Origin: Candidatus Nealsonbacteria bacterium RIFCSPLOWO2_01_FULL_43_32
GTDB taxonomy: Bacteria; Patescibacteriota; Minisyncoccia; Minisyncoccales; MHMH01
NCBI GenBank assembly: GCA_001819335.1
Contig: MHMH01000021.1
Span: forward strand, 1 to 62,835
Direction: 5' to 3'
Length of the DNA stretch: 62,835 nucleotides
Under the pieces are notes generated by a model that ran no database searches, had not been told where the DNA came from, and was given only the letters and a program-made list of their open reading frames with translations. Shown here in pieces: positions 22,237-62,835 of this stretch. The stretch's first letter is position 1, and every line of letters begins with the position of its first letter. The position numbers and the translations under genes were made by a program.

Positions 22237-23715
22237 TTAAAAATATTTTTCCTGGTAAATCCTTTTCAATTCTTCAAACATCTTATTCCCCTCTTCGTCA
22301 AACTTTTCCGCTATTTTAATCTTAGGCCATTCCGTTTTGGAAAATCTCGCGTATAAGGGGAAAGTCCTCTGCAAGCCCTTCAATTCTTCGTAGGTGATGG
22401 AATCCATGTTAAGCCTGACGCTGTCCGTCAAATTGTGCACTTTGGCGTTTTTATCAAGGTAATCCTTTTTAATACAATATTGATACAAAGTTGTACCTTT
22501 ATAAGGAACGAAAAGATAGCAATTGATGGTGCGGGGATTTAATTGGCGATTTAATTCAATGGTATCGAAAATAAGCTCTCTTGTTTCGTCGGGGAAACCA
22601 ATAATATTGTTAACAGTATAGAGTATCCCGTATTTCTCAACCATCTTCAAACCCTTCAGCATCTGCTGATTTGAGCCGGAACGGTTAAGTATTCTTTTCC
22701 GAAATTCTTCATTCCCGTGTTCAATGCCAAATTGCAGGGTCTCGCAATTCATTTCTTTTAGAATCTTTATTTTTTCTTCGGTGACGGTTTCCGGCCTAGT
22801 CTGACACCAAAAAGGCAGGCCGATTTCTTTATATTTTTCAGCAAACTCCTGAAGTTCTTCCAAGGGTTTTGCTAAAAATGTTTCTGAATTAAAATTAACA
22901 TAGTCAGGATTGTATTTTTTGACCAAGTGCCTCATTTCCGCTATTAATCTGTCTATGTTCTTTCTTCTGTAATATAAACCGCAACCTTTCTCTTGAAATA
23001 TTTTTTTGAGCTGAGGAGCCCCGCAGTAAGTACAATTATTAGGACAGCCCCGATCCATCTCTACATGCATCATAGTGTAAATCTTGCCGAACATCGGCCG
23101 GGCCAGCCTTTCTTTGCCGAAAATATCGTAATCAATATAAGGAAGTTTATTAATGTCAGTGAGCGACCTTAGGGGATTTTTCACAATCTTCCCCTCTTTT
23201 TTAACCCAAAGGTTTTTGACTTGAGAATAATCCTCGCCTTTTGACAATTTCTGACAAAGTTCTGCCAAAGTCTCTTCGCCTTCGCCGAGACAAATCATGT
23301 CAACCGCCTTATTTTGAATCACTTCTTCTGGTGAAAAAGTCACATAAACACCTCCGGCAATAACCGGAATATCAAAATCTTTTATCTTCTCTAATAGGGC
23401 TTGAGCTAAATCCCAGGTATCTTCAACAATAGTTAAAGCAATTAAATCAGGCCTAAATTTACTAACCTTTTTGATCAAATCGCCGTAAATATCGGTTTCT
23501 GTAAACTGCACTCCCTTGTCAGCCAGATTAAAGGGCTTCAACTGCAACAATTCCACCCTTTTTTGCTCAAAACTAATATCTTCTGTTTTATAGAAAGTCG
23601 TATCAAACAAATCAACCTCAAAGCCCCTCTCCTTCAAACAAGCTGAAAGCAAAGACAAATTGATTGGCACTAAAGTCGCCATCATTGTGTTGGGATAAAT
23701 GAACAATATTTTCAT
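22237..23715 (-). CDS. B12-binding-domain radical SAM protein (subfamily A)
   Basis: 492 aa. N-terminal Rossmann-like domain with GEGEETL, then NLWVKKEGKIVKNPLR and Fe-S motif DRGCPNNCTYCGAP. Confidence 0.9.
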   Translation of the reverse strand: MKILFIYPNTMMATLVPINLSLLSACLKERGFEVDLFDTTFYKTEDISFEQKRVELLQLKPFNLADKGVQFTETDIYGDLIKKVSKFRPDLIALTIVEDTWDLAQALLEKIKDFDIPVIAGGVYVTFSPEEVIQNKAVDMICLGEGEETLAELCQKLSKGEDYSQVKNLWVKKEGKIVKNPLRSLTDINKLPYIDYDIFGKERLARPMFGKIYTMMHVEMDRGCPNNCTYCGAPQLKKIFQEKGCGLYYRRKNIDRLIAEMRHLVKKYNPDYVNFNSETFLAKPLEELQEFAEKYKEIGLPFWCQTRPETVTEEKIKILKEMNCETLQFGIEHGNEEFRKRILNRSGSNQQMLKGLKMVEKYGILYTVNNIIGFPDETRELIFDTIELNRQLNPRTINCYLFVPYKGTTLYQYCIKKDYLDKNAKVHNLTDSVRLNMDSITYEELKGLQRTFPLYARFSKTEWPKIKIAEKFDEEGNKMFEELKRIYQEKYF

Positions 23716-24479
23716 TAATTGTTTTTGTAAGGAGTTTTGTCTCCGGTGAAGCCATTATATTTCAGCCACCATTCAACTTGACCCCATTGCCACTCGTAAT
23801 CAATGTCCAAGCCCGCCTCATTTTCAATGGGATAAATTTTCTGGCCCATCCACTGCTGGGGCTTCACACCTTCTTCGATATTGTCCAAGCATCTGGGTCT
23901 CACCAAAGAAAGCGCCACGTCAGCCAGCCAAGCATCACCGGCTGAATCCCGGTCGCAGCTCATGGTCTTGGGGTCGCCAAAGGCCTCAAGAGGCACAAAG
24001 GGTTCTATCAAGCCGTCTTTGTTGATTTTTCTCATTCTGTTGGGGTGGTACATGTTGTATTTGCCCACTGTAATGACCGAGTCGTAATCAGGGTGCTCCC
24101 TTAAGATTTCAACTCCCTTGTCAATCTGGCTCGCCAAAACTGTCGGAGCGTTGCAGTGCAATAACGCAATGAATTCCACCTCCTTGCCTTCTTTTTTCAA
24201 TTCATCGCGGATGACGTTGAACCCGTGAACGAATGCGTCCTGGCCCAGGGCCTTATGGCCGGCCAGTTCCGCGGGCCGGTCGATGACCCTAGCTCCTTGC
24301 TGCTTGCTGATTTCTTTTATTTTGTCTGAATCCGTAGAAACATAAACTCTTTCTACATATTTAGAATTTTGGGCAGCTAATATGGGGTAAACCATGAGAG
24401 GCCTACCCAAAGCTGGCTTAATATTTTTCCCGGGGAACCCTTGGCTCCCCTCCCGGCCGATAAGTAAAGCGACAATCAT
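23715..24479 (-). CDS. Acylneuraminate (CMP-sugar) cytidylyltransferase-family protein
   Basis: 254 aa. ALLIGREGSQGFPGKNIKPALGRPLMVY...VYVSTDSD...RPAELA is a NeuA/CTP_transf_3-type N-terminus. Confidence 0.8.
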   Translation of the reverse strand: MIVALLIGREGSQGFPGKNIKPALGRPLMVYPILAAQNSKYVERVYVSTDSDKIKEISKQQGARVIDRPAELAGHKALGQDAFVHGFNVIRDELKKEGKEVEFIALLHCNAPTVLASQIDKGVEILREHPDYDSVITVGKYNMYHPNRMRKINKDGLIEPFVPLEAFGDPKTMSCDRDSAGDAWLADVALSLVRPRCLDNIEEGVKPQQWMGQKIYPIENEAGLDIDYEWQWGQVEWWLKYNGFTGDKTPYKNN

Positions 24480-24508
24480 ATTGTTTATTGTGTTTATTAA
24501 TTATTAAT

Positions 24509-25267
24509 TTAATCACCCCCAGCTACAGTAAAAGTTTCTCCGGTAATGTAATCACCTCCCCTGGAAGCTAAAAAAAGAACCATTTGAGCGATATCAGAGG
24601 GTCTGCCCATTCTTCCCAGAGGAGTTAACTTTACTCTTTTTTGAAGATCTGCCTTTGTCCGATGAATTTTCTGATGGAAAAGAGTATCAATAATTCCTCC
24701 TCTCACGGTATTAACCAAAACATTGTAGGGAGCGCCTGCCCGAGCCAACCCCTTAGTTATCGCCTCCAGGGCAGCTTTGGCTGCTCCATAATGCAGGGTA
24801 GTTGCTGAACCGCCATATTTTGCTGCGACAGAGCTGATATTAATTATCCTGCCTCCTCGCTGTTTTTCCATACATCTGAAAGCTTCCTGAGCTAAGAAAA
24901 AAGGAGCGGCGGCATTAAGGGCAAAGGTTTTCTCCCAAGACCTTTCATCAAGCGACAAAAAATCTTTGACTCCGTAGACTCCGCCGGCATTATTAACCAA
25001 AACATCTATTCGGCCGAATTTTTGGATAAACTCACGAATTAAGTTATGACGACTGGCACTTTTGGTCAAATCGGCCTCCTTTAAAATTTCAGCTCGTCCT
25101 CCAAAAGAAGTTATTTTCCTTCTCAATTCTAATGCTCTTTTTTGGGATTGGTAATAATGGATGCCCACTAAAGCTCCATGCTTAGCAAAAAGCTCAGCTG
25201 TGGCAACGCCAATGCCGCCGTTAGCTCCGGTAATGAGAACTTTTTTGTTTTTTATTTCTTTAAACAT
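24509..25267 (-). CDS. Short-chain dehydrogenase/reductase
   Basis: 252 aa. TGANGGIG, NNAG and S...YGAAK catalytic pattern. Confidence 0.9.
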   Translation of the reverse strand: MFKEIKNKKVLITGANGGIGVATAELFAKHGALVGIHYYQSQKRALELRRKITSFGGRAEILKEADLTKSASRHNLIREFIQKFGRIDVLVNNAGGVYGVKDFLSLDERSWEKTFALNAAAPFFLAQEAFRCMEKQRGGRIINISSVAAKYGGSATTLHYGAAKAALEAITKGLARAGAPYNVLVNTVRGGIIDTLFHQKIHRTKADLQKRVKLTPLGRMGRPSDIAQMVLFLASRGGDYITGETFTVAGGD

Positions 25268-26246
25268 TTTCTTTGAGTTTTAATATCTCGGTTGTTCTAA
25301 AAGCACAACCATTGCAAATTTTGACTTCATAAGATCGACCTTTTTCGTTAAGTTCTCGGATTTTCTCCATAATTTCTCCCCGCCAAGCAACCTGAATACT
25401 GTCTCCCCGATTAACATTACCGAGATTATAAGAATTGGAATAATCAAACTGGCAAATGGTAATAGTGCCGTCCCATCTCACCATCATCCTCTGCCAAAGA
25501 TAGGGGCAAGCCCAATCACCGATTAAATTCTGGCTTAAATAAGAATAATCCTTAAAATCGATAAAAGCTATCTCGTCAACTATATTTTCCCAAAAATGTT
25601 TATACTCATCCAGGACAGGAACTAATTCCGGCAAAGCCACAGTTTGAATTCTGACCAACGGTCGCTCTTTTTTCATTTCCCTTTTCAGTTGAATAAAATC
25701 TCTAATATTTTTTAAAACCTTATCAAAGTTAGCTCCCACTCGGTATTTTTCATAAACCTCAGCCGTGGTTCCCTCAAAAGAAATGGAGAGCCTGTCTAGT
25801 CCAGTCTCGATAATTTTTTTACTGACATCTTGAGTCAATAGGACGGCATTAGTGTTGAAATAAATATCTATTATTCCCTTTTTCTTGGCATAAGCTATCA
25901 TCTCTGGCAGGGCCTTATTTAATAAAGGTTCTCCCCGTCCTCCGGAGTTAAGCTTGACGGCGCAAAGACCATTTACTGCTCCTTCGTCAATAATTTTCTT
26001 GAAAGTGTCAAAGGACATAAATCCTTGGCCGCCGATTGGCTCATAATTGGTGGCGCAAAAGGAACACTTTAAATTGCACAAGCAAGTAGTCTCAATGTCT
26101 AGGTGGAGCGGGAATTCGCCTGCGGTAAAGGTTTTGGGTCGAGTCTCCCAGTTCTTGCGGTATTCCAAAAAACGAGGCTCTTGGCTCCGCAAGACGCTTT
26201 TCCCGCCAATGGTATGAAAATTAGCATTTACTTTAATTTCTGTCAT
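25260..26246 (-). CDS. Radical SAM protein with SPASM/twitch-like C-terminal Cys cluster
   Basis: 328 aa. ETTCLCNLKCSFCAT, and C-terminal CPYLW...ICQFD...ICNGCAF. Confidence 0.85.
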   Translation of the reverse strand: MTEIKVNANFHTIGGKSVLRSQEPRFLEYRKNWETRPKTFTAGEFPLHLDIETTCLCNLKCSFCATNYEPIGGQGFMSFDTFKKIIDEGAVNGLCAVKLNSGGRGEPLLNKALPEMIAYAKKKGIIDIYFNTNAVLLTQDVSKKIIETGLDRLSISFEGTTAEVYEKYRVGANFDKVLKNIRDFIQLKREMKKERPLVRIQTVALPELVPVLDEYKHFWENIVDEIAFIDFKDYSYLSQNLIGDWACPYLWQRMMVRWDGTITICQFDYSNSYNLGNVNRGDSIQVAWRGEIMEKIRELNEKGRSYEVKICNGCAFRTTEILKLKENV

Positions 26247-26956
26247 ATATTTGAAGCCGCCGCTTCGTCTGCCAAAACAATGGTTGGCACATCATTGAAG
26301 GTTAGGGCCGGCAGCTCTCGTTTATTATATTTCTCTTTATCAAGGATGAGCTTTCTTAACAAATCCGCTTTATCTTTGCCGGCCAGCATTAAAACATTAG
26401 TCTTGGATTTATTGAGAAACCAAGGGGTAAGAGTAATTCTTCCAGCATAACCCCAAACCTTGGTAGACGCTGATAAATCCCAAATATCATTCTTCCAGCC
26501 AATCCGGGGATTTTCTATCATAACACCGTTCCGGTGGCCATCTGCGCCTGCGCCATTAAAAGTTAAATCAAAACCATCAGGGGCTAAACTATCTATCTGT
26601 CGAGTGTATTCTTGCGCTCCCTCAACTAAGCCTAATTCTATTTTTATGGGGTGGAGATTGGCTGGAATGTGGCTCAGCCAGGGCTGGAAAGCTCTTTGGA
26701 AGTTGCTTTCTGGATGATGGCTTGCTTTTCCTTCATCTCCCCAGAAAACATGCACCTTCGGCCAAAAAATACTTTCTTTATAATCAGTCGCCAAAAGTTC
26801 AAACATGCGTTTGGGCGTTGAGCCGCCGCTGATAGCCACCGTAAAAATATCCGGGTTCTTACTGGCCGAAATAAAAAGTTGGCAGGCGTGACGAGAAAGC
26901 TCTTCTAAATCAGCCAATATTCTAATTTCTAAATTGTCTGCCTTCTTTATTTTCAT
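26243..26956 (-). CDS. 6-phosphogluconolactonase / glucosamine-6-P deaminase-family protein
   Basis: 237 aa. AISGGSTPKRMFELL...VHVFWGDE pattern. Confidence 0.7.
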   Translation of the reverse strand: MKIKKADNLEIRILADLEELSRHACQLFISASKNPDIFTVAISGGSTPKRMFELLATDYKESIFWPKVHVFWGDEGKASHHPESNFQRAFQPWLSHIPANLHPIKIELGLVEGAQEYTRQIDSLAPDGFDLTFNGAGADGHRNGVMIENPRIGWKNDIWDLSASTKVWGYAGRITLTPWFLNKSKTNVLMLAGKDKADLLRKLILDKEKYNKRELPALTFNDVPTIVLADEAAASNI

Positions 26957-26957
26957 T

Positions 26958-27842
26958 TTAAAGTAAATTTAATCCGGCAAGTAAATTATCAACGGCTTCC
27001 CTTTCCATTTGGACTCGGCACTCTTTGGTGTTAGAGCCAATGTGGGGAGTCAGGATCACTTGCTTAAATTCGGTTAAAGGCCCCGCATACGGCTCCTTTG
27101 AAAAAACATCAATGTAGGCGCCGGCCGCTTTGCCGCTTCGCAACGCCTCGATCAAGGCATTTTCATCCCAAAGTTCGCCCCTGGCGCTGTTAATTAAAAA
27201 AACTCCGTCTTTCATCAGGGCAAATTCGCTTGCCCCTAAAATTTGCTTCAAACCCGAAGCATGAAGGCAAATAATATCAGCTTGGGGCAAGGCTGTTTCC
27301 AAAGAAATTCCGGGAAGAGACGAATCAATGGTTATTAATTTGATGCTGAACGGCGCGAGCATCTTAGCCAAATATCGGCCGATTCGGCCAAAGCCGATGA
27401 TTAAAACCGTTTTGCCGGAAAGTTGCACCCCCGTCTTTTTATCCCAAATTTTTTGGCGGACTGCTTGATCCATTTGGGGAATTTGTCTTAACAGAGCCAA
27501 AATTCCTCCCAGGGTAAGTTCAGCTACCGCAACCGTGGGGGCTTCGGGCGTATTTTTGACAACAATGCCCAATTCTTTGGCCGCCTCAAGGTCAATACTA
27601 TCTATGCCCACGCCAACACGGGAAATAACTTTCAAACTGGAGTTTTTCAGAGTTTCCCTGTCAATCGTTTCCGTGCCGGCAATCAGTCCGACGACCCCGG
27701 GCAAAAGATCTCTCAACTCTTCAGAAGTCACCTTCCGGCCGTAAGGATTTTGGATTATTTCAAAACCGCCCTTTTCTAATTTTTCCAGGGGCCCCTGGTC
27801 TGCTTTGCCGAAAGACGAGGTAGTAATCAAAATTTTAGACAT
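26958..27842 (-). CDS. D-isomer-specific 2-hydroxyacid dehydrogenase (PGDH-like)
   Basis: 294 aa. GFGRIGRYLAK NAD motif, NSARGELWDE and LTPHIGSNT. Confidence 0.85.
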   Translation of the reverse strand: MSKILITTSSFGKADQGPLEKLEKGGFEIIQNPYGRKVTSEELRDLLPGVVGLIAGTETIDRETLKNSSLKVISRVGVGIDSIDLEAAKELGIVVKNTPEAPTVAVAELTLGGILALLRQIPQMDQAVRQKIWDKKTGVQLSGKTVLIIGFGRIGRYLAKMLAPFSIKLITIDSSLPGISLETALPQADIICLHASGLKQILGASEFALMKDGVFLINSARGELWDENALIEALRSGKAAGAYIDVFSKEPYAGPLTEFKQVILTPHIGSNTKECRVQMEREAVDNLLAGLNLL

Positions 27843-29331
27843 ATTTTTCTAACTCTTTAAACGGATTGTTTTTTTTGGTGCGCCAAACAAATTTCACTCC
27901 TGCCTCCTTAGCTCCCTCGCAGTCATCAATAGCATCGCCCACAAAAATTACTTCTTGATTCTTTAAGTTAAAATCTTTCAGTATCTTTAAGATAAGCTCG
28001 CTTTTTTTAGCCGGACTGCCCAAAACGTCTTTGAAATACCGACCCAGGCCCCGCTCTTTAACGAGCGATTTAATTTCTCCGTCGGGAGTCCCCGAAGCGA
28101 TAAAGAATGGTATTTTTTGATGATATTTTTCCAAAAACTCTTGAGCTCCTTCAACAAAAGGTGAAGCTAACACCCCCTGATAAACATATTCTGAAAACTG
28201 CCTGCTTAACTTCTGCTTCCTTTCTTCAGAAAGCGGTTCGTGTAAAATATCGCGGTGGATTCTTTCGAGTTTTTCAAAACGGGACATTCCGCCATGAGTA
28301 GTATGCAACGCCACAATTTCGTTAATCTTTTCCGGATAATTATTGAACAGAACAGTAAAAGCTTTTGTTTTTACGTCCATGGATTCAAGAATGGTGCCGT
28401 CGAAATCAAAAATGATGGCCCTAACACGATTGGCACATTCTTGGTAAACCTCACTGATTAAGCTTAAAATCCCCTGCCCGAAATCAACGTAGTTGGGACT
28501 CTGAATCCGCTTGGCCAGTTTAGGGATAAAACTATAAGGAGTAATAGAGTAGTGCTCTGAGGAAGTGGCCGGTAAAAATTCCAAGTCAATTTTATTATCC
28601 AACATCTCTTTAATCATCAACAGCGAATCCTTTATCTTCATGGGCTGGTTGCCGGCAATAATCACGTGCTCGTTTTCATACTCTTCGGCCAAAATATCCA
28701 CGCTTAATCTGGCAGCATCATAAATATGGATGTATTCCCTGATTTCTTCGCCATCGCCGTTTCTGGTGATTTTGCCCCGGGTAATGGCTTGCTCTAATAT
28801 CTGACGAACCCAGTTGTTTCTATCGGCCCTGGGACCGTAAAGAGAACCGTAGCGCAAAATAGTGTAATTTAAGCCATAAATTTCTTGATAGTTATTAATT
28901 AATAACTCGCAGGCCTGTTTTGAGCTGCGGTAAAAAGAACCGGCTTTGCTGTAGACATAAAGAGTGCTGGCAAAAATAAATCTCTCGATGCGATGGGTTC
29001 TCGCTACTTCCAGTAAAACGGCATTGCCCAAAATATTTGTTTTAACCGTATCAAGGGGATCGTTTTTGGCCTCTTCAATGTCAGCCACCGCCGCAAAATT
29101 ATAAACAATCTGGCACCCTTCCATCGCCTCTCCAACGGATTTCGGGTCGTTAATGTCTCCTACAATCGAAATCTGCCCCTCTTTTAAATAAGGAGATTTT
29201 TCAATATCAAAGATAACAACCTGGTAACCGCGGTCGGTTAAAACATCGGCCACATGAGAACCCAAAAACCCGGCTCCACCGAAGACAACTACTTTTTTAT
29301 TTTTATTTTCTCCTGATATATTATCTGGCAT
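27835..29331 (-). CDS. Fusion: NAD-dependent epimerase/dehydratase (N) plus HAD phosphatase (C)
   Basis: 498 aa. N-terminal half: VVFGGAGFLGSHV and YRSSK. C-terminal half: IIFDFDGTILES...GDAIDDCEGAKEAGVKFVW. Confidence 0.8.
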   Translation of the reverse strand: MPDNISGENKNKKVVVFGGAGFLGSHVADVLTDRGYQVVIFDIEKSPYLKEGQISIVGDINDPKSVGEAMEGCQIVYNFAAVADIEEAKNDPLDTVKTNILGNAVLLEVARTHRIERFIFASTLYVYSKAGSFYRSSKQACELLINNYQEIYGLNYTILRYGSLYGPRADRNNWVRQILEQAITRGKITRNGDGEEIREYIHIYDAARLSVDILAEEYENEHVIIAGNQPMKIKDSLLMIKEMLDNKIDLEFLPATSSEHYSITPYSFIPKLAKRIQSPNYVDFGQGILSLISEVYQECANRVRAIIFDFDGTILESMDVKTKAFTVLFNNYPEKINEIVALHTTHGGMSRFEKLERIHRDILHEPLSEERKQKLSRQFSEYVYQGVLASPFVEGAQEFLEKYHQKIPFFIASGTPDGEIKSLVKERGLGRYFKDVLGSPAKKSELILKILKDFNLKNQEVIFVGDAIDDCEGAKEAGVKFVWRTKKNNPFKELEKYV

Positions 29332-37578: not shown

Positions 37579-37591
37579 ATGATGGTTATGA

Positions 37592-38158: not shown

Positions 38159-38160
38159 GT

Positions 38161-38406
38161 TTACCACTTAGCAATGGCTCTTTTGGCTTTAGTTTTGATT
38201 TTCTTATAAACACTGTAAACCTTGTCTTCAACTTCCGGTGAAACCAATCTTAAAATTTCCGCGCCCCAGATGCGGTATTGGCCTCCTACTTTATAGGCGC
38301 GGAGAGTCCCTTTTTTCAAAAGCCGCTTGATCGTGCTTTCGGAGATCTTTAAAAAATCGCGGGCTTCTTCGGTCGTATAAATTTGCTTTGGTTCAATCTC
38401 CTCCAT
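38161..38406 (-). CDS. Small excisionase/MerR-like HTH (HTH_17) DNA-binding protein, probably leaderless
   Basis: YTTEEARDFLKISESTIKRLLKKGTLRAYKVGGQYRI. The ATG at 38406 sits 7 nt after a TATGAT -10 box. The track start at 38451 is the TTG of the -35 hexamer. Confidence 0.7.
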   Translation of the reverse strand: MEEIEPKQIYTTEEARDFLKISESTIKRLLKKGTLRAYKVGGQYRIWGAEILRLVSPEVEDKVYSVYKKIKTKAKRAIAKW

Positions 38407-38412
38407 GTTCCC

Positions 38413-38460: not shown

Positions 38461-38471
38461 TTGCGCAAATC

Positions 38472-38497: not shown

Positions 38498-38510
38498 CTT
38501 TCTTATAAGT

Positions 38511-46496: not shown

Positions 46497-46516
46497 AATA
46501 TATTACAATACAACAT

Positions 46517-53206: not shown

Positions 53207-53389
53207 ATGTTTTCTGCCGAAGAAAATAAAATATCCAAATTCTCGGTTATTAAAGAGCTCTGCGGTTTTTTAATGATCCGTAAAAAATGGTGGCTGATCC
53301 CGCTGGCGGTTCTTTTGATAATATTTGGCGCGTTGATCGTTTTTGTTGAAGGTTCGGCCTTAGCTCCGTTTATTTACACCATATTCTGA
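53207..53389 (+). CDS. DUF5989 / SxtK-like small membrane protein
   Basis: 60 aa. IKELCGFLMIRKKWWLIPLAVLLIIFGALIVFVEGSALAPFIYTIF is the family pattern. The track ORF from 53057 runs through the divergent promoter region. Confidence 0.75.
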   Translation: MFSAEENKISKFSVIKELCGFLMIRKKWWLIPLAVLLIIFGALIVFVEGSALAPFIYTIF

Positions 53390-53402
53390 AATAACGACCT
53401 CC

Positions 53403-56283: not shown

Positions 56284-56680
56284 ATCAAAATTTGGAAATA
56301 AAAAAGAGTGGCGGAAGTTTGGAATCGGCTTGGCGGTTATGCTTTGCTCAATCGGGACCCTGCAATTCATTTTTGACAAGGATTTGTATCCGTATTTTTA
56401 TTTTGCGGCCGCAATGATTTTTTCGGCCAGTCTGATATTTCCGGCGTTGCTTTACCCCGTTTTCGTTGTATTTTGCCGCGTTGGGGTTGGCTTGGGTCTA
56501 TTTACCACCAAACTGGTGTTAATTCTGCTTTTCTATTTTTTATTCGCGCCCCTTGGATTTTTGTTAAAGATGACCGGAAAAGATTTTCTGGATTTAAAAT
56601 TAAATAAGGCGGCCGACACCTATTGGAAAAAAAGAAAAACCGCTGAATTCGATAAAAAGAGTTATGAAAATCAATTTTAG
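56276..56680 (+). CDS. SxtJ-like membrane protein
   Basis: 134 aa, 3-4 TM helices. ...FAPLGFLLKMTGKDFLDLK...YW tail typical of SxtJ-family proteins next to carbamoyltransferases. Confidence 0.6.
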   Translation: MDKSKFGNKKEWRKFGIGLAVMLCSIGTLQFIFDKDLYPYFYFAAAMIFSASLIFPALLYPVFVVFCRVGVGLGLFTTKLVLILLFYFLFAPLGFLLKMTGKDFLDLKLNKAADTYWKKRKTAEFDKKSYENQF

Positions 56681-57827
56681 AAAGTTCAGAGATTATTACA
56701 AATTGACCGCCATCATGCTGTTGAATATTTGCCTGCTGTTTATATTGGTTAATATTCTCGGCTTCGTCGGTATCAATATCAGAGAAAATTACTTCAAACA
56801 AAAGACCGTTATCGCTGAAAAATACGGAGAGGCGGCTCTGGAACGGGTTTATCCCGGGTTGACCGCCCGAGAGATAGCCGAAATCCAAAGAGAAAGCTGG
56901 AGTAATGTGTATCTCTATGAACCTTTTACTCAATTTAAAGAAAGACCCACTTCCGGCAACTACGTTAACGTGGCTGAAGCGGGCTTCAGAATTACAAAAA
57001 ATCAAGGGCCGTGGCCTCCCGATCCGGAAAACTTCAACGTCTTCCTTTTCGGCGGATCTACGACATTTGGCTACGGATTGCCCGATAATCAAACTATCGC
57101 TTCCTATTTGCAGGATTATCTTTCGCAGGTGAAGGAAGAGAGGGTGGCAGTGTATAATTTCGGCCGGGGCGCTTACTTTTCTACCCAGGAAAGGATTTTT
57201 TTTGAACAATTGCTAACTTCCGGCCACATTCCCGATCTGGCTATATTTATTGACGGATTGAATGAATTTTATTTTAACCAACCGCTGTTTACTAAACATT
57301 TGGAACAATTCCAACGATTCAACGGAGAACCCCTTGGGGCTCTGAAATTTTACGGTTCAATGGAAATAAAAAAACTTCCGATTACCAGGCTTGCCCGATT
57401 TTTTGGAGATTTGATTATCAAGAAAGAAGAATTAAGCGAGAAAGTAGCATACAACGACCCTTCTGTAATCAACCAATTAATTAATCGTTATCTTGAAAAT
57501 AAGAAGATCATTGAGGCCGCAGCGGCAGTTTATGAGGTAGCGCCCATTTTTGTCTGGCAGCCCGCTCCGAATTATAAATACGACCTGCAATATCATCTCT
57601 TTGCGGGCAATGGGGATTTTGACGCTAACAATTATATAGAGTACGGATATCCTCAGATAGCAGAGATGTATGAAAAGGGATTGCTGGGAGATAATTTTTT
57701 CTGGCGCGCGGACATCCAAGAAGGAATCAAAGAGCCCCTTTATGTCGACAAGGTTCATTATACTGCCGGGATGTCCCAAAAATTAGCAAAAATAATCGTT
57801 GATTTATTATATAACGGAGCCGACTAA
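56664..57827 (+). CDS. Membrane-anchored SGNH/GDSL-like hydrolase or acyltransferase
   Basis: 387 aa. N-terminal TM helix; FLFGGSTTFGYG (block I-like), FIDGLNEF (block III-like) and DKVHYT (DxxH-like). Confidence 0.5.
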   Translation: MKINFRKFRDYYKLTAIMLLNICLLFILVNILGFVGINIRENYFKQKTVIAEKYGEAALERVYPGLTAREIAEIQRESWSNVYLYEPFTQFKERPTSGNYVNVAEAGFRITKNQGPWPPDPENFNVFLFGGSTTFGYGLPDNQTIASYLQDYLSQVKEERVAVYNFGRGAYFSTQERIFFEQLLTSGHIPDLAIFIDGLNEFYFNQPLFTKHLEQFQRFNGEPLGALKFYGSMEIKKLPITRLARFFGDLIIKKEELSEKVAYNDPSVINQLINRYLENKKIIEAAAAVYEVAPIFVWQPAPNYKYDLQYHLFAGNGDFDANNYIEYGYPQIAEMYEKGLLGDNFFWRADIQEGIKEPLYVDKVHYTAGMSQKLAKIIVDLLYNGAD

Positions 57828-57828
57828 A

Positions 57829-59232
57829 ATGTTAGATATTTTGTTATTGGCGCCTTCGGACGTAGCGGCCTTTGGTAAAATAGATGTAAAAAAAATTGAC
57901 GCCGACCTCTTTCCGCTGGGGATAGCTTATATCGCCGGATTTTGCAGGAAAAAAGGATATTCCGTCGACGTGGTGGACCTTAGATTATTTGGCGATGAGT
58001 GGGAGCAAAAGCTTAAAAATAAAATTATTTCAGAAAAACCGCGTTACGTCGGCCTAAGCTGCGTGACTCCCCTAATCCGGGAATGTCAAACTATCGCCTC
58101 TTACGTCAAAACCATCGATAAAAATATCAAAATCATTGTGGGCGGTCCGCACCCCACCGTCCTTCCCGAAGAAACGGCCAAATTGGCTGAATTTGACATC
58201 ATCGTCATAGGAGAAGGCGAATTTACGGTTGCTGAAATATTAAAGAACGGCGACTTGGGCAAGATTAAGGGAATAATTTATAAAGAAAGCGGTAAATTAA
58301 TCAAAACGGAACCAAGGGAAATCAACATGGACTTAGATCAGCTTCCCTGGCCGACCTACGACCTGATTCCTATTAATAATTATATCAATCCTTTCTTCGG
58401 AAAATCAGTAATTATAGCTACGGGCAGGGGCTGTCCGTTTAAGTGTATTTTCTGCCCCTCTAATTTGATTGGCGGGGGGAAATACAGATTAAGAAACGTG
58501 AAGAATGTGGTGGATGAAATGGAGTTTTTATATAAAAAATATGGCATTAAAGGATTTATGATAATGGATGAGACGTTTACATTATATCCCGATCGCGTAG
58601 TTGAAATTTGCGATGAAATAATCAAAAGAAAAATAAAAATAAAATGGGCCTGCGACACCCGGGTCAATACCGTTTCGGAGGGACTTTTAAGAAAAATGAA
58701 GGAAGCGGGATTTCGATTGATCAAATTCGGGATAGAATCCGGAGACGATGAAATTTTAAAAATAATAAAAAAGGGCATCACCGTAGCTCTGGTTAAAAAA
58801 GCCGTGAAACTCGCCAAAAAGGCAGGTCTAGAAGTCCACGGTTTTTTCATTATCGGCCACCCCTACGATACCGAAGAAACAATTTTAAAAACCATCGGCC
58901 TTGCAAAAGAGTTGCCCTTGGATTTCGCGCAGTTCTCCATTATGGTCCCCTTCCCCGGCACGGAAATTTACAATATGGCAAAACAAGGCAGGGGCATCAC
59001 TCTTTTATCGGATGATTGGAATAATTTTAAAAAATACGGAAAACCGATTATTGAGCTTCCTACGGTTTCAAGGGAAGAACTTGAGAAATTTCATGCCATA
59101 GCTTATAAACAATTTTATTTCAGACCTTCTTATATCATCAAAAGGTTCTTCAAAACAAAGCCGACCGAATATCTAAATTTATTCAATAAGGCCTTGGCAT
59201 TGTTTAATTTCATGAAACAATCTAAAATCTGA
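57829..59232 (+). CDS. B12-binding-domain radical SAM protein (subfamily B)
   Basis: GEGEFTV, GIIYKESGKLIKTEPR and GRGCPFKCIFCPSN. The ATG at 57829 has a GGAG 9 nt upstream. The track start at 57799 is TTG inside the previous gene. Confidence 0.9.
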   Translation: MLDILLLAPSDVAAFGKIDVKKIDADLFPLGIAYIAGFCRKKGYSVDVVDLRLFGDEWEQKLKNKIISEKPRYVGLSCVTPLIRECQTIASYVKTIDKNIKIIVGGPHPTVLPEETAKLAEFDIIVIGEGEFTVAEILKNGDLGKIKGIIYKESGKLIKTEPREINMDLDQLPWPTYDLIPINNYINPFFGKSVIIATGRGCPFKCIFCPSNLIGGGKYRLRNVKNVVDEMEFLYKKYGIKGFMIMDETFTLYPDRVVEICDEIIKRKIKIKWACDTRVNTVSEGLLRKMKEAGFRLIKFGIESGDDEILKIIKKGITVALVKKAVKLAKKAGLEVHGFFIIGHPYDTEETILKTIGLAKELPLDFAQFSIMVPFPGTEIYNMAKQGRGITLLSDDWNNFKKYGKPIIELPTVSREELEKFHAIAYKQFYFRPSYIIKRFFKTKPTEYLNLFNKALALFNFMKQSKI

Positions 59233-59240: not shown

Positions 59241-60290
59241 ATGTTATTATTATCAAAATTGAATACGGGACTGCGCATGATTCCTGCCATTTTAAAGGCT
59301 AAATACATTAAACCGGTGCCTATTTTTTGCCAATGGGAAATTACCTACAATTGCAATATGGATTGCCAATTTTGCATGCCGAAAAGAAACATCGCGTTAA
59401 AAAAGAGATCCCCCGAATTAACCACAAAAGAAGCGATTGATATCATACGACAACTTGCAGACCTGGGAACCAAGATACTAAATTTCTCCGGCGGAGAACC
59501 AACCTTAAGAAAAGATTTGCCCATCCTTATTAACGAGGCTAAAAAAAGAAAGATGGCCGTGTTTTTCAGTACCAACGGTTCAACGCTTAAAGACACGGCA
59601 AAAAATCTTTGGGAAGCCGATATGATCAGGGTCAGCATAGACGGTCCCAAAGAAATTCACGATAAAATCAGAAGACACCCGGGGGCTTTCGATAAGGCCG
59701 TAGCCGGGATAAAAATATTAAAAAAATACGGGAAAAAACCGATGATTGTAACAGCCGTAAGCAACTTAATGGAATTCAAAGATTTGATATGTATGGCGGA
59801 ACTGGCAAAATCACTGGAAGTCCAAATTGATTTTTCAATGGTGGGAATTTCTCTTCCGGCTACTATCATAAACCCTCAAAAATCAGATTTAATGAAAGAA
59901 CAGACACAACTTGTTTCAAATGTAAACTGGTTTATTGAAAGTATCGCCAAGTTAAAAAAAATGTACGGAAAAACGATCGCGAATCCCAGTATTTATCTTG
60001 AAATGCTTAAAAAGGGAAGTTTGGCTAATTTTGGTTGTAAGGCCCTGACCGCCAATATCTCAATCAAACCCAATGGGGCTGTAGGGTTTCCTTGCGATAA
60101 TTATACAATGGGATTAGCCCAAGGAAATTTAAGAGATATCTATTTCGGTAAAAAAGTCAGCGAGGCAAGGAAGTTAACTGGAAAATTTTGGTTTTGTCAT
60201 CTCTGCTACAGCAGGTGCAATGGTTTTTCAACTATGCTTCTTAAAACAAAACACCTATTGAGCATATTAAAATCTTATAAAAGTTTTTAG
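59241..60290 (+). CDS. Radical SAM protein with SPASM/twitch-like C-terminus (paralogue of 50537-51592)
   Basis: 349 aa. TYNCNMDCQFCMPK, GGEPTLRKD, VSIDGPKEIHDK, and C-terminal GCKAL...PCDN...CHLCYSRC. Confidence 0.85.
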   Translation: MLLLSKLNTGLRMIPAILKAKYIKPVPIFCQWEITYNCNMDCQFCMPKRNIALKKRSPELTTKEAIDIIRQLADLGTKILNFSGGEPTLRKDLPILINEAKKRKMAVFFSTNGSTLKDTAKNLWEADMIRVSIDGPKEIHDKIRRHPGAFDKAVAGIKILKKYGKKPMIVTAVSNLMEFKDLICMAELAKSLEVQIDFSMVGISLPATIINPQKSDLMKEQTQLVSNVNWFIESIAKLKKMYGKTIANPSIYLEMLKKGSLANFGCKALTANISIKPNGAVGFPCDNYTMGLAQGNLRDIYFGKKVSEARKLTGKFWFCHLCYSRCNGFSTMLLKTKHLLSILKSYKSF

Positions 60291-61102
60291 TTTCTTAATA
60301 TTAATATGGTAGCTTCGGGAGGACAAAATAATCTTATGGGCATTGTTTTATTTGCGCCCAATCCCCCGCTGACATGTAAATAATAACCGTGATAATTATA
60401 CAAACCCTTATTGTATGCTCGCTGAAAAGAAGACAAGGCAACAAGAGGCCCGATCGATGGGAAGCGTATTTGACCGCCGTGCGTATGCCCGGAAAGCGCT
60501 AAATTTATTTTAATATTGCCTAATTCTTTTAGTAAATCCGGTATATGACTCAATAAGACAACGTACTCCTCTGGCGAAATATTTGAAAATAGCCCTTTCA
60601 GGGGTATTATTTTTTTTGAAAATCTGTTTGTATTTTTATATCTATCAAGGCCGAAAGGCGCGTCTACGCCAATAATCGTTAAGGGCACCGAGTTAATATT
60701 TATCGTTTTCTTCTCATTGATCAAAATTTGAATGCCGTTTTCTTTTAATCTGCGCCGAAGGAGTTCCAAATTATTTTTCTTAGGCTCGCTCATGAGGCGG
60801 AAAAAAAACGAGTGCAATATATTAAAATCAAATCTATCATGATTGCCGAGACAGGCCCAAATGCCGAATTGGGGGGAAAGTTTTTTCAGATATTTAACGC
60901 ACCACTCGATTCCGTCATTATTATCTATTAAATCGCCGGTTATCAGGACGAGATCGCTTCTAATCTTTTTTAATTTTTCAAAATAACGTTCTATTTTCCT
61001 ATTTCTCCCGGCGAGATGTAAATCAGATATATGAAGAATGCGAAGTCCGTCTAATTTTGAAAAAACATCGCTTAATTTTATATTTATTTCGTTAAGTCTC
61101 AT
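60287..61102 (-). CDS. Calcineurin-like metallophosphoesterase
   Basis: 271 aa. HISDLHL, TGDLID, GNHD and SGHTHGGQ. Confidence 0.85.
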   Translation of the reverse strand: MRLNEINIKLSDVFSKLDGLRILHISDLHLAGRNRKIERYFEKLKKIRSDLVLITGDLIDNNDGIEWCVKYLKKLSPQFGIWACLGNHDRFDFNILHSFFFRLMSEPKKNNLELLRRRLKENGIQILINEKKTININSVPLTIIGVDAPFGLDRYKNTNRFSKKIIPLKGLFSNISPEEYVVLLSHIPDLLKELGNIKINLALSGHTHGGQIRFPSIGPLVALSSFQRAYNKGLYNYHGYYLHVSGGLGANKTMPIRLFCPPEATILILRN

Positions 61103-61121: not shown

Positions 61122-62579
61122 CTAAAACCTCCCCTTTATCCTAAATTCGCGCAAGGCGTTAATAAGTTCTTCGCTTTTTCCTTGACCAAGCAAAATAAGC
61201 AATTTGAATGAATCTAAGGGATGTAAAATTGAGAATTTTATTACATCGAATAAAAAAGAAGGCTGCTTAATATATCCCGCTACTGTTTTTTTTAAATTAT
61301 CTTCTAGCAGATTATTGTATATCTTGTGCAATTCTCCAGGAGTAAAATTCATAGTAAACTTGGGAGTTGCGTTACTCTCCCAGCTCAAATCATCGCTCCT
61401 TAAATCCAGCCATTTGTTTTCAAGAGTCTGTTGATAAAGCCCGGTCCCCGGATAGGGAGTCGTAAAGAAAAGACCGATATAGTCCGGTTTTATTTCTTTA
61501 AGCAGTTCTTTTGTTTTTTGAATGTCTTCCATGGTTTCATACGGCGTTCCTATCATAAAAGTCGCCAGCGATCTCAATTTATATTTTTTACAAATTTTAA
61601 AAGCTTTTTTACTTTGCTCCACAGTAATCCCCTTTTTAAGATAATTCAGAATGTTTTGTGAGCCTGATTCTACGCCAAAATCAACCTGCAGACAGCCCGC
61701 CCCTTTTAATGCCGCCGCTTGAGTTTCATTAAAGAAATTTACCCGGGCCTGACAGCCCCATTTTAAGTTCAGGCCTGATTCTCTTAACTTCCTGCAAAAT
61801 TCCACAACTCTCTCCGTTTTTACCGTAAAAGTATCGTCTAAAATATCAAATCCTTCGATCTTATATTTTTCGCTCAAAAACTTTAATTCTTCGATCACAT
61901 CATCAATGTTCCTTTCTCTCACCCCGTAACCATGGGTAAGGGAACTCGCACAAAACGTACACCTCCCCGGGCAGCCTCTTGAGGTAAATACCCAGCCATT
62001 TCTCAGCCAATAGCCCCTGATAGAATAATTTCGGGCCAAATAACGGTCCATGTTAATCAGATTGTAGGCCGGGAACGGTATCTTGTTTACATCCTCATAA
62101 TTGGTTTTGGCGTTTATCCTGATCTTATTATCCGAATCCCTGTAAGCTATCCCGTCTATGCTCTCTTTTTTGATTTTGCCCTGATAATAATCAATAACCC
62201 TCAAAATAGTGCCCTCGCCTTCTCCTAAAATGACGATGCCTGCTCCGGCATTCAACATATCTTCCGGCAAGGCGGTGGCATGCGGTCCTCCGATTACGAG
62301 CGGTATCTCTTTTCTTATTTTCTTAAATGATGAAATTAATTTCCTGACAATCTTCACATGGGCCGTCATGCAGGCGATGCAAATCAGATCCGGTTTTTTG
62401 CCGATAATTTTTTCAACCAGCCCCTCCCTCTCGGGATCAAAATTTTCATTATTATAGGAATCGAATTCGATGATTTCAACCTTATGATTTGCCCTTTCTA
62501 AAACCGCCGCCAAATAAAGCAGACCGAGCGGAGGCGAGAATCCAATCTGGGGATTTATTAAAATTATATTGGCTCTCAT
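61122..62579 (-). CDS. B12-binding-domain radical SAM protein (subfamily B)
   Basis: 485 aa. GEGEGTI, GIAYRDSDNKIRINAKT and SRGCPGRCTFCASS. Confidence 0.9.
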   Translation of the reverse strand: MRANIILINPQIGFSPPLGLLYLAAVLERANHKVEIIEFDSYNNENFDPEREGLVEKIIGKKPDLICIACMTAHVKIVRKLISSFKKIRKEIPLVIGGPHATALPEDMLNAGAGIVILGEGEGTILRVIDYYQGKIKKESIDGIAYRDSDNKIRINAKTNYEDVNKIPFPAYNLINMDRYLARNYSIRGYWLRNGWVFTSRGCPGRCTFCASSLTHGYGVRERNIDDVIEELKFLSEKYKIEGFDILDDTFTVKTERVVEFCRKLRESGLNLKWGCQARVNFFNETQAAALKGAGCLQVDFGVESGSQNILNYLKKGITVEQSKKAFKICKKYKLRSLATFMIGTPYETMEDIQKTKELLKEIKPDYIGLFFTTPYPGTGLYQQTLENKWLDLRSDDLSWESNATPKFTMNFTPGELHKIYNNLLEDNLKKTVAGYIKQPSFLFDVIKFSILHPLDSFKLLILLGQGKSEELINALREFRIKGRF

Positions 62580-62833
62580 TTTTTAGTAATCCTGTTTAGG
62601 TAATTGAACATGTAGCTTAAAACCATATCCGGGTGGCGGACAATGAAATATCCGTATCTCTGTAAAAATATTTTGGGGTTTCTAAGAACAAAGTTAAGAT
62701 TCAGCAGAAGCGTCTCTTTGATATATATCTTTTCCAAATCTCTCTGGGAAAATTCTTCTGTTTCGATATTGGCGCTGGTAAACTCAAACTCCTTAAAGCT
62801 GAAATCCTTTACCAGGTATCCTTTCTCCCGGCA
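62576..62833 (-). CDS. 3' end of a further minus-strand CDS truncated by the window edge
   Basis: Open frame ...FSQRDLEKIYIKETLLLNLNFVLRNPKIFLQRYGYFIVRHPDMVLSYMFNYLNRITKK* ends in a TGA that overlaps the next ATG (ATGA). The tail style resembles the radical SAM C-termini, but this is not diagnostic. Confidence 0.4.
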   Translation of the reverse strand, partial: CREKGYLVKDFSFKEFEFTSANIETEEFSQRDLEKIYIKETLLLNLNFVLRNPKIFLQRYGYFIVRHPDMVLSYMFNYLNRITKK

Positions 62834-62835
62834 TT

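Follow-up and report, generated by a model that had tools for sequence, protein, structure and literature searches.

Class B-type radical SAM genes in a surface-glycan island of Candidatus Nealsonbacteria: a putative set of sugar-tailoring enzymes

Class B radical S-adenosylmethionine (SAM) enzymes form a huge and mostly uncharacterised family. Members that act on sugars or sugar-like substrates include GenK, GenD1, Fms7, MoeK5, HpnJ, OxsB and Fom3 (PMC9204698). Two reviews of the B12-dependent radical SAM enzymes, from 2022 (PMC9204698) and 2026, place none of them in a polysaccharide pathway, and the words polysaccharide, glycan and heptose are absent from the 2026 review. Here we describe a stretch of 62,835 nucleotides (hereafter the window) from a metagenome-assembled genome (MAG) of Candidatus Nealsonbacteria, which holds a large part of a surface-glycan island with interspersed class B-type radical SAM genes. 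We consider it moderately probable that these enzymes, together with short radical SAM proteins encoded among them, tailor nucleotide- or polyprenyl-linked sugars of a surface glycan by radical chemistry. The gene families and the type of locus are already known; the combination, the density and the host are new. Full-text literature searches linking radical SAM enzymes or cobalamin with the Candidate Phyla Radiation (CPR), Patescibacteria, Parcubacteria, Nealsonbacteria, DPANN or polysaccharide loci gave no account of such loci, in keeping with the initial annotation of this DNA, which held that no such pathway had been characterised.

Coordinates below are those of the window, features lie on the minus strand unless marked with a plus sign, and NCBIfam scores are given as score/cut-off in bits. 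Among the 56 large open reading frames (ORFs) of the window, 12 carry a CxxxCxxC motif, all of them within 22237-62835, and this count agrees with the initial annotation. In all 12, and in three proteins encoded beyond the window, the motif lies inside the PF04055 core, as expected of the radical SAM superfamily. Nine of the window proteins passed both the PF02310 B12-binding model (gathering cut-off 32.1 bits; N-terminal scores of 35.9-86.7 bits) and the PF04055 Radical_SAM model (cut-off 29.5 bits; scores of 45.7-106.8 bits). The three class B proteins beyond the window, read from the overlapping assembly L001, also passed both models, giving 12 of 12. An N-terminal B12-type domain with a GEGE motif had been attributed to nine ORFs; the domain was borne out in every one, and the literal GEGE in only seven, the gene at 40493 having GESE and that at 49107 GDGE. 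In alignment, the N-terminal motifs are kept across all nine window paralogues. A DxHxxG motif was found in none of the window proteins, which is normal for class B. No transmembrane (TM) segments were detected in the radical SAM proteins, which are thus predicted to be cytoplasmic.

The nine window paralogues, with B12-binding and Radical_SAM bits in brackets, are no. 1 (22237-23715, 492 aa; 57.1 and 81), no. 2 (29347-30822, 491 aa; 55.9 and 82.5), no. 3, the most divergent (30835-32475, 546 aa; 35.9 and 45.7), no. 4 (34225-35589, 454 aa; 74.8 and 56.2), no. 5 (40493-41836, 447 aa; 39.2 and 99.2), no. 6 (49107-50540, 477 aa; 53.6 and 74.3), no. 7 (51580-53100, 506 aa; 64 and 68.1), no. 8 (57799-59232, +; 86.1 and 106.8) and no. 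9 (61122-62579, 485 aa; 86.7 and 82.6). For no. 8 the longest ORF opens at an upstream TTG, and the public gene call is 467 aa from the ATG at 57829. The C-terminal end of no. 10 (501 aa) lies at 62576-62835, where it is truncated by the end of the window; nos. 11 and 12, and about 30 kb of further glycan genes, were read in overlapping assemblies. None of the 12 proteins reached any curated subfamily cut-off in NCBIfam (HpnJ, BchE, PhpK, SD_1168, HpnR, GenK-like, MgmA, BzaD, ApyD, KedN5, TsrM). The top scores were SD_1168 329/575 for no. 10, HpnJ at most 246/578, BchE at most 208/481 and PhpK at most 153/600, and the remaining ones ranged from 50 to 250 bits against cut-offs of 250-750. For individual proteins the best models were HpnJ for no. 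1 (127.7/577.6) and no. 5 (187/578), BchE for no. 2 (193/481, with HpnJ at 174/578) and the PhpK family for no. 6 (145/600).

Structure models covered two of the 12 proteins, the best paralogue (no. 8) and the one with the weakest B12-binding score (no. 3), and both fold like solved class B enzymes. The AF2 model of no. 8 (57829-59232) had a pLDDT of 92, and Foldseek matched it to AprD4 (TM-score 0.76), OxsB (0.73), TsrM (0.71), CysS (0.71), TokK (about 0.7) and MgmA (0.67). The model of no. 3 (30835-32457) had a pLDDT of 62, with a confident N-terminal five-strand Rossmann domain, and OxsB and TsrM as the top matches.

Pairwise identity among the 12 class B paralogues is only 21-45%. We therefore rejected a recent tandem duplication, and each paralogue appears to be an old, distinct enzyme lineage. 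For one class B protein, the closest relative outside, in a Nanoarchaeota MAG (54% identity), is nearer than any paralogue in the island (at most 36%). When four of the class B genes were compared with their orthologues in a second Nealsonbacteria genome (contig L126), dN/dS came to 0.05-0.10 at dS of 0.54-0.69, with 0.078 for no. 9. To judge from these alignments, the class B genes are functional and constrained by strong purifying selection.

Three shorter radical SAM proteins complete the set, each with its CxxxCxxC motif close to the N-terminus. The first (25260-26246, 328 aa) scored 74 bits with Radical_SAM and 42.6 bits with SPASM (PF13186; gathering cut-off 21.5) and has four C-terminal cysteines. 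The second (50537-51592, 351 aa; Radical_SAM 97, Fer4_12 29.8) has a twitch/SPASM-like C-terminus with five cysteines, and its best model was the PTO1314 family (113/306). The third (59241-60290, +, 349 aa), paired with no. 8, matched Radical_SAM and Fer4_12 in Pfam, also has five C-terminal cysteines, and has BlsE as its closest solved sequence. All three had been annotated as SPASM-type; by Pfam model this stands for the first, while the other two matched only Radical_SAM and Fer4_12 and look better described as twitch or partial SPASM than as canonical seven-cysteine SPASM proteins. The C-terminal cysteine counts of all three would fit a twitch or partial SPASM domain. For the short proteins as a group, the closest solved sequences were BlsE, a glucuronide-nucleoside decarboxylase, SkfB and MoaA; PTO1314 was the best NCBIfam family, under its cut-off, and no equivalog was attained.

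An exact-sequence cluster match assigned the window to a Candidatus Nealsonbacteria MAG from Rifle groundwater (Patescibacteria, Parcubacteria group), in which its proteins are OGZ23961-OGZ24013, with locus tags A2896_013xx-015xx. The initial annotation confined the island to 22237-62835 and counted nine class B enzymes. Both figures proved too small, as the island overshoots on either side and holds 12 class B genes once the extension is read. The rightward extension was followed through the overlapping assemblies L001, L127 and L128, whose overlaps were 99.9-100% identical to the window or to each other, and 16 contigs bearing the protein encoded at 59241-60290 were read. In window-equivalent coordinates the island begins at about 10.8 kb and reaches 93.2 kb or beyond, a span of at least 82 kb; the last readable base of the overlapping assemblies, at about 93.2 kb, is still amid glycan genes. 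All 12 class B-fold genes and the three short radical SAM genes lie between 22.2 and 67.1 kb. An assembly chimera was rejected, since independent assemblies (L001 is identical to the window across 13.6 kb at 100%) and the syntenic second Nealsonbacteria genome, with the same gene order, concur. The NCBI MAG contig seemingly breaks right at the end of the window, inside the tenth class B gene; accessions and tags jump there from OGZ24013/A2896_01585 to OGZ24840/A2896_01610, and assemblies of up to 103,290 bp span the break.

The radical SAM genes are tightly packed with sugar genes. The minus-strand gene train runs for about 37 kb with gaps mostly below 30 nt and one above 100 nt. As claimed in the initial annotation, translational coupling by ATGA start/stop overlaps was seen, at six junctions inside 22237-62835 (26243, 33617, 35586, 43862, 47485 and 50537), and several overlaps of 8-23 nt were also present. 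This packing ties the radical SAM genes to the sugar genes. Only two gaps in 22237-62835 exceed 100 nt, and they are occupied by an HTH_17 gene and a DUF5989 gene.

The same gaps bear on the idea that the cluster modifies a peptide or surface protein, by polytheonamide-type C-methylation or sactipeptide-type crosslinks, as part of a ribosomally synthesised and post-translationally modified peptide (RiPP) pathway. ApyD and 'RiPP maturation C-methyltransferase' models do match at E values of 1e-9 to 1e-55, and the short radical SAM proteins match sactipeptide and ranthipeptide maturase models, but all those scores are far under the cut-offs. No precursor-like ORF was found, and with the two larger gaps coding for the HTH_17 and DUF5989 proteins no gap has room for one. 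The initial annotation had seen no precursor peptide, peptidase or exporter, and we likewise found none in 22237-62835; in the island as a whole, too, no peptidase, exporter or leader-recognition (RRE) protein is encoded. On the absence of precursor, peptidase, RRE protein and exporter, together with the scores below cut-off, we rejected this explanation as extremely improbable.

The machinery found on the left flank, outside the coordinates first given, reinforces the surface-glycan context. The proposed left edge is a Wzy_C/O-antigen-ligase-like polytopic membrane protein with a C-terminal TPR (10848-13130; Wzy_C 65.2 bits, gathering cut-off 31.7; about 12 TM-like segments). It is followed by an initiating polyprenyl-phosphate glycosylphosphotransferase (13262-14560, +; Bac_transf, Pfam 214.5; TIGR03025 331.7/295.6) and a Wzx-type flippase candidate (14557-15804, +; Polysacc_synt 40.2 bits, gathering cut-off 28.2; seven TM-like segments). 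With the initiating phosphoglycosyltransferase, Wzx and Wzy/ligase all over their cut-offs, the predicted proteins show a Wzx/Wzy-type assembly line.

To the right of the window, the three class B genes of 501, 494 and 506 aa come first. They are followed by an ArnC/DPMS-like GT2 glycosyltransferase (closest solved relatives ArnC and DPMS), a FAD enzyme like UDP-galactopyranose mutase (UGM; E 3e-30 to 4DSG), a small EamA-like protein and a 419-aa GT-C, relatives of which are named GT39, and then by a second small SMR/EamA protein with a 470-aa GT2. Next come a TylC3-type C-methyltransferase (PF08421 and PF08484), epimerases/dehydratases of the short-chain dehydrogenase/reductase (SDR) type, a PMT_2 GT-C and another GT2, and finally six GT4s, methyltransferases, two polysaccharide deacetylases, a DegT aminotransferase and an acyltransferase. 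A DprE1-like role for the conserved FAD 'amine oxidase', as an epimerase of a lipid-linked sugar, was rejected, because its solved relatives are UDP-galactopyranose mutases (E 3e-30). By homology, several side-branch modules with lipid-linked donors are encoded, each with an ArnC/DPMS-like GT2, a small EamA/SMR protein and a GT-C. Nucleotide-sugar supply is likewise shown by predicted function, in the form of an ADP-heptose set, a GDP-heptose-like set, the UGM-like mutase, a CMP-sugar-synthetase-like enzyme and 4,6-dehydratase/epimerase SDRs. In total the island holds about ten glycosyltransferases. Its classical tailoring genes encode O/N-methyltransferases, the TylC3-type C-methyltransferase, a carbamoyltransferase, deacetylases, an aminotransferase and an acyltransferase.

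Between the first class B gene and the assembly genes, the left flank holds a further group that may serve non-sugar decorations. A phosphonate ABC importer, PhnE-PhnC-PhnD (16497-18953), scored above all three equivalog cut-offs (PhnD 281.8/261.1, PhnC 310.2/266.1, PhnE 291.8/216.7). It is flanked by an NTP_transf_3 nucleotidyltransferase (15781-16485; Pfam, no NCBIfam equivalog attained) and by a second NTP_transf_3 protein that is ATGA-coupled to a membrane protein of the CDP-alcohol phosphatidyltransferase family (18996-20497; Pfam), the two resembling a split IPCT/DIPPS. This arrangement suggests that the cell scavenges a phosphonate or phospho-alcohol, activates it with a nucleotide and attaches it to the polymer or to a lipid. 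A subset of the class B enzymes could then act on such decorations and not on sugars: import by PhnCDE would be followed by activation by NTP_transf_3 in the manner of PntC/Fom1, C- or P-methylation on the nucleotide as by Fom3, PhpK or SD_1168, and transfer by the CDP-OH_P_transf protein. The substrate of Fom3 is a cytidylylated phosphonate (PMC9204698), and the highest-scoring models are the SD_1168 P-methyltransferase family for the 501-aa class B enzyme (329 bits) and the PhpK family for no. 6 (145). These scores are, however, far under the cut-offs of 575 and 600, the Phn genes lie more than 25 kb from the two enzymes concerned, and neither a PEP mutase nor another phosphonate biosynthetic gene was seen. 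Moreover, PhnCDE may merely scavenge phosphorus and be located here by chance. We regard this explanation as decidedly unlikely. On the same flank, class B no. 1 is separated from the CDP-alcohol transferase by a 559-aa protein (20554-22233; one TM-like segment), which gave no Pfam, NCBIfam or PDB sequence match and lies in a region of marked AT skew. Just outside the island, at 5334-7996, is a polyamine trio of a pyruvoyl-dependent arginine decarboxylase, an agmatinase-family protein and a deoxyhypusine-synthase-like protein; for the last, the top model was 'homospermidine biosynthesis protein' (438.8 bits, cut-off 450).

The initial annotation had also listed GT4, GT9, heptose-type sets, three class I methyltransferases, a cytidylyltransferase and a carbamoyltransferase interleaved with the radical SAM genes, and these gene families were upheld. 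The CMP-sugar-synthetase-like cytidylyltransferase (CTP_transf_3; 23715-24479; Pfam 58.1; best NCBIfam PseF 83.6/205.7) adjoins a classical short-chain dehydrogenase (24509-25267; adh_short_C2 187 bits). At 26243-29331 follow a 6-phosphogluconolactonase/NagB-like protein, a D-2-hydroxyacid dehydrogenase and a fusion of NAD-epimerase/dehydratase and HAD (Pfam, NCBIfam). A GT4 glycosyltransferase (32457-33620; Glycos_transf_1 97.8, Glyco_transf_4 73.9) and a class I SAM methyltransferase (33617-34276; Methyltransf_11 59.4) lie between class B nos. 3 and 4.

The ADP-heptose set is complete and contiguous. It comprises a fusion of the HldE adenylyltransferase domain with GmhB, the HldE kinase domain and GmhA (35586-38167; GmhA 225.1/209.5, rfaE_dom_I 343.6/345, rfaE_dom_II 157/181.5, GmhB 174.5/178), and an HldD-like ADP-heptose 6-epimerase with a GT9 heptosyltransferase (38511-40496; heptose_epim 214.3/274.6, heptosyltransferase II 134.1/134.6, Glyco_transf_9 81.7). 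Of these only GmhA passes; the HldE kinase, GmhB and GT9 come within 4 bits of passing, and the adenylyltransferase and HldD-like proteins fall further below their cut-offs. The 343-nt gap between the GmhA and HldD-like genes is filled by a small HTH_17 (excisionase/MerR-like) DNA-binding protein (38161-38406; 47.5 bits, gathering cut-off 27), which may be a local regulator. A full predicted ADP-heptose pathway with a heptosyltransferase II-like GT9 (35586-40496) is present in a Patescibacterium; Patescibacteria are not known to make lipopolysaccharide (LPS). The HldD-like protein (92% identity) and the GT9 (52-57%) recur on other groundwater contigs (L105, L097).

A second, GDP-heptose-like (or Lmb-like octose) set lies at 43862-47488, with a fusion of NTP-transferase and GmhB, a fusion of a GmhA-like SIS isomerase and a transaldolase (45171-46496) and a GHMP kinase. 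The transaldolase passes TIGR02134 (316.5/282), whereas the equivalogs of the GDP-D-glycero-D-manno-heptose route were not attained (HddA 139/600, HddC 108/300). The order of enzymes in this set mirrors the lincomycin GDP-octose route, which uses the LmbR transaldolase, LmbN isomerase, LmbP kinase, LmbK phosphatase and LmbO nucleotidyltransferase. The second set could therefore make an octose, or the transaldolase could merely supply sedoheptulose-7-P.

Next to this set are a 674-aa polytopic GT-C-like membrane protein (41841-43865; about 12 TM-like segments, UniRef name 'Glycosyltransferase RgtA/B/C/D-like', no Pfam match) and an NAD epimerase/dehydratase with a class I SAM methyltransferase (47485-49102; Pfam). 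A divergent operon (53207-57827, +; Pfam and L001 gene calls) encodes DUF5989, the carbamoyltransferase, a methyltransferase, an SxtJ-like membrane protein and a 387-aa GDSL-like protein. In this operon (region 53207-56680) the carbamoyltransferase is flanked by two small membrane proteins, the SxtK-like DUF5989 (60 aa) and the SxtJ-like protein (134 aa), a bracketing typical of saxitoxin-type carbamoyltransferase operons, and the weakly GDSL-like protein comes next. A metallophosphoesterase (60287-61102; Metallophos 69.8) is kept beside the class B run in contigs L123 and L126.

Relatives of the island were compared for the neighbourhoods of their class B genes. In the second Nealsonbacteria genome (L126), Metallophos, four class B genes, GT2, UGM-like, EamA and GT-C genes follow in the same order at 78-94% identity. 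In a third genome (L123) the module has been rearranged but can still be recognised. Four class B genes and two for short radical SAM proteins occur there beside those for a methyltransferase, PMT_2, GT2, Metallophos and a FAD protein of the amine-oxidase family (Pfam), the last only 26% identical to the island's UGM-like gene. Other groundwater contigs resembling Nealsonbacteria carry repeated epimerase/GT2/EamA/GT-C modules with interspersed class B genes, some with GT9 and HldD. The pair of no. 8 and the short radical SAM protein at 59241-60290 is conserved in L123 and in a Nanoarchaeota MAG (L007; GCA_040753775, 4781-11507), in the latter at 54% and 47% identity, where it adjoins GT2s, a FAD enzyme, another class B gene, GT4s and methyltransferases. 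A 55% homologue lies about 9 kb from STT3/AglB on another contig (L124, 1-11416), which is probably archaeal as it carries STT3. The closest relatives of this pair outside Nealsonbacteria are on DPANN-type archaeal contigs, and this distribution suggests that the module is common to both domains among ultra-small groundwater organisms. A Schekmanbacteria homologue (44%) sits between NDP-sugar transferases, an epimerase, a GT2 and PMT_2 GT-Cs.

We further examined 80 GTDB loci, anchored on relatives of 28-40% identity found with the generic pattern RGCP[FY]xCxFC. Two or more class B genes occurred in 30 of the 80, with a maximum of six in 15 kb. Such dense clusters recur in many uncultivated lineages, among them L018 with six in 15 kb, L072 with five in 17 kb, and L020/L042 (Bathyarchaeia) and L065/L079 (Omnitrophota) with four each. 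Neighbours were pooled from 14 loci with multiple class B genes in 14 other lineages (117 proteins), and the 25 most frequent Pfam families were listed. The list was headed by GT2 (10 of 117), PMT_2 (6), methyltransferases (5), NDP-sugar dehydratase/epimerase (3) and GT1 (3), and no RiPP family was among those 25. The pool also held PQQ-like beta-propellers, oxygenases of the PhyH and Asp/Arg-hydroxylase types, LPG_synthase_TM and peptidase U32. Homologues elsewhere thus neighbour sugar genes (GT2, GT-C/PMT_2, NDP-sugar enzymes, STT3) and not RiPP precursors, and the association of class B genes with glycan genes is general, not peculiar to this compact genome. The two checks by which the initial annotation could have been refuted, on the B12-binding models of the N-terminal domains and on the genes beside homologues, both came out in its favour.

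These neighbourhoods bear on the substrates in two ways. The initial annotation proposed a heptose-rich glycan, but the module conserved in relatives consists of the ArnC-like GT2, the UGM-like mutase and the GT-C, without heptose genes. Given this conserved core, the run of four class B genes may act on a lipid-linked furanose or hexose and not on heptose, whereas heptose tailoring is plausible for the class B enzymes adjoining the heptose sets (34225, 40493, 49107). Secondly, the conserved partners (ArnC-like GT2, GT-C and small flippase-like proteins) handle lipid-linked intermediates, and LPG_synthase_TM proteins lie near some loci with multiple class B genes. Both facts would also fit enzymes that act on lipids and not on the glycan, as HpnP/HpnR and ladderane-associated or GDGT-modifying enzymes do; the target would be the polyprenyl carrier or membrane lipids that the cell has scavenged. 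CPR cells lack de novo lipid synthesis and may remodel the lipids of a host. The best match of no. 7 is TIGR04072, 'lipid biosynthesis B12-binding/radical SAM', and in L001 the protein at 14842-16326 has TIGR04072 as a near-tied second to TIGR04013 (96-104 bits). Against this, the TIGR04072 scores fall far short of the cut-off (360), the one CDP-alcohol transferase is the only gene in the island for the synthesis of fatty acids, isoprenoids or phospholipids, and the neighbours are overwhelmingly sugar enzymes. A lipid substrate is thus very unlikely in our view.

Whether the class B enzymes use cobalamin is a separate matter from the glycan-tailoring role. AprD4 (6FD2) was both the top sequence match (E 1.8e-28) and the top structure match of no. 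8, and also the top sequence match of no. 6 (49107-50540). AprD4 has a B12-like N-terminal domain, and the 2026 review counts AprD4 and ArsL within the B12-radical SAM network, yet as proteins that bind no cobalamin, and ArsL was the best, though weak, NCBIfam match of no. 3. Most or all of the 'B12-type' enzymes might accordingly work in the same role with the 5'-deoxyadenosyl radical alone, for example in 1,2-diol dehydration to deoxy sugars, epimerisation or C-C rearrangement, which would spare a cofactor-poor CPR cell any demand for B12. CPR bacteria are generally cofactor auxotrophs, which counts in favour of such an economy. Neither a recognisable B12 transporter or cobalamin gene nor a cobalamin riboswitch was seen in the window, which gave no Rfam match at gathering thresholds. 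The lack of a visible supply route noted in the initial annotation therefore still holds for recognisable B12 genes, but the region 4381-5329 contains an orphan ECF S-component (4793-5329; PF12822, 44 bits) beside a DUF1893/TM1506 protein, the sole candidate cofactor-uptake gene in the window. CbrT-like B12 uptake by this S-component was tested, and no PDB sequence match or NCBIfam match was found.

The N-terminal domains point the other way. All nine window domains pass PF02310, and their motifs are conserved under purifying selection. The sequence alignment with AprD4 is limited to the radical SAM core (residues 168-385), whereas the cobalamin-dependent MgmA, OxsB, TokK and CysS align into the N-terminal domain and span the GGPH...GEGE segment. 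In addition, the model of the weakest paralogue matches OxsB and TsrM first. The PF02310 scores, the MgmA/OxsB-type N-terminal alignment and the purifying selection weigh against AprD4-like non-binding, so that, going by domain and model comparisons, most of the class B enzymes probably use cobalamin. A set that is mostly or wholly independent of cobalamin seems to us unlikely.

Several observations weigh against the proposal that the radical SAM enzymes tailor glycan sugars, or against parts of it. No radical SAM enzyme attains a curated subfamily cut-off, the best being 329/575 for SD_1168, and a substrate could be assigned for none of the 15. The closest structural match, AprD4, is cobalamin-independent, and no recognisable B12 transporter, riboswitch or cobalamin gene is present in the window; the assignment as methylases is therefore not secured. 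The heptose genes lie outside the radical SAM module conserved in the relatives L123 and L126. Since the island includes CDP-alcohol genes and a bona fide phosphonate importer, some enzymes may act on non-sugar decorations. Finally, adjacency in a compact CPR genome is a weaker sign of shared function than it is in large genomes.

Sugar tailoring is nevertheless the reading that we favour, and it would proceed as follows. Each radical SAM enzyme would make one distinct radical change on a cytoplasmic sugar, either nucleotide-activated or on polyprenyl phosphate. The candidate chemistries are C-methylation at an unactivated position, contraction or rearrangement of the ring as by HpnJ and OxsB, AprD4-like deoxygenation, and oxidation or decarboxylation as by BtrN and BlsE. 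Modified units would then be flipped and added to the surface polymer, giving a heavily carbon-modified, heptose-containing and probably furanose-containing surface glycan. Cobalamin for most of the 12 enzymes would probably be scavenged from the community or a host. The likely role of such a glycan would be at the cell-cell interface of an episymbiont, in attachment, recognition or phage evasion. A wider proposal is more tentative, and we hold it as possible but rather doubtful: that ultra-small episymbionts of CPR and DPANN share a radical-SAM toolkit for glycan tailoring, which yields a hitherto unknown class of surface carbohydrates, made of multiply C-alkylated, ring-rearranged or carbocyclic sugars, with cobalamin derived from hosts or neighbours, the glycan being a determinant of host attachment and specificity. 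The units of this toolkit would be pairs of class B and twitch radical SAM enzymes joined to modules of polyprenyl-P-sugar synthase, mutase and GT-C.

If correct, these proposals would matter in several fields. For enzymology, twelve distinct and conserved class B enzymes would be a rich, coherent source of new catalysts for C-H functionalisation, all working on one class of substrate. For glycobiology, the island predicts a very unusual surface glycan and names concrete genes; we know of no CPR or DPANN surface glycan that has been chemically defined. CPR genomes are typically about 1 Mb or less, and if this one is about 1 Mb, the island of at least 82 kb would be about 8% of the genome, held under strong purifying selection. 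So large a share would mean that the cell invests heavily in its surface, as it should if that surface mediates episymbiosis. Should cobalamin be bound by these domains, a dozen enzymes would require B12 in a cell presumed incapable of its synthesis, a dependence on the community that could be tested directly; if the shared toolkit is real, B12 would act as a hidden currency in such symbioses. The finding would surprise both radical SAM enzymologists and CPR biologists, and with named genes it becomes directly testable what covers CPR and DPANN cells.

Compared with described systems, the island shares with the proteusin clusters (PoyB/PoyC) the presence of several class B enzymes per locus in uncultivated bacteria; those clusters have a precursor peptide, a protease and a peptide product, whereas the island has no precursor and a glycan context. 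Among the closest solved relatives, AprD4 (aminoglycoside sugar) and BlsE (glucuronide nucleoside) offer precedents for the chemistry. AprD4, the 1,2-diol dehydratase of apramycin and the closest solved protein to 57829-59232, works on its aminoglycoside sugar without cobalamin, whereas the N-terminal motifs of the window proteins are also found in MgmA, OxsB and TokK, which are cobalamin-dependent; an AprD3-like reductase partner was not identified. Five of the 12 class B proteins have HpnJ as their best NCBIfam match (at most 246 bits, under half of the cut-off of 577.6). HpnJ (hopanoid cyclitol ether) and OxsB (oxetanocin) are non-methylating class B enzymes that contract sugar rings, HpnJ acting on a lipid-linked glucosamine. 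The island has no hopanoid genes, and ring contraction is one of several possible chemistries.

Heptose capsule and O-antigen loci, such as GDP-heptose modification in Campylobacter jejuni and the ADP-heptose/GT9 genes of the LPS core, share with the island sets of GmhA, kinase, phosphatase and nucleotidyltransferase, SDRs, methyltransferases and GT9. Known heptose tailoring, however, is SDR, cupin and class I methyltransferase chemistry and not radical SAM chemistry, and the island's second set differs by its SIS-transaldolase fusion, which resembles the LmbR/N/P/K/O GDP-octose route. The ArnC/ArnE-F/ArnT and GtrA/B/C systems likewise combine an ArnC/DPMS-like GT2, a small EamA/SMR protein and a GT-C (PMT_2), a module repeated in Nealsonbacteria loci. 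To our knowledge they include no radical SAM enzymes, whereas in the island four class B genes directly abut the GT2/UGM-like/EamA/GT-C module. Further parallels are GenK, GenD1/GntE, Fms7, MoeK5 and Fom3, which like the island's enzymes combine B12-binding and radical SAM domains and are encoded among sugar-pathway genes; they act on unactivated carbons of sugars or nucleotide-linked substrates (PMC9204698). Those antibiotic pathways use one to three such enzymes for a secreted small molecule in actinomycetes with large genomes, whereas here 12 accompany the Wzx/Wzy and GT-C genes of a surface polymer in a reduced CPR genome.

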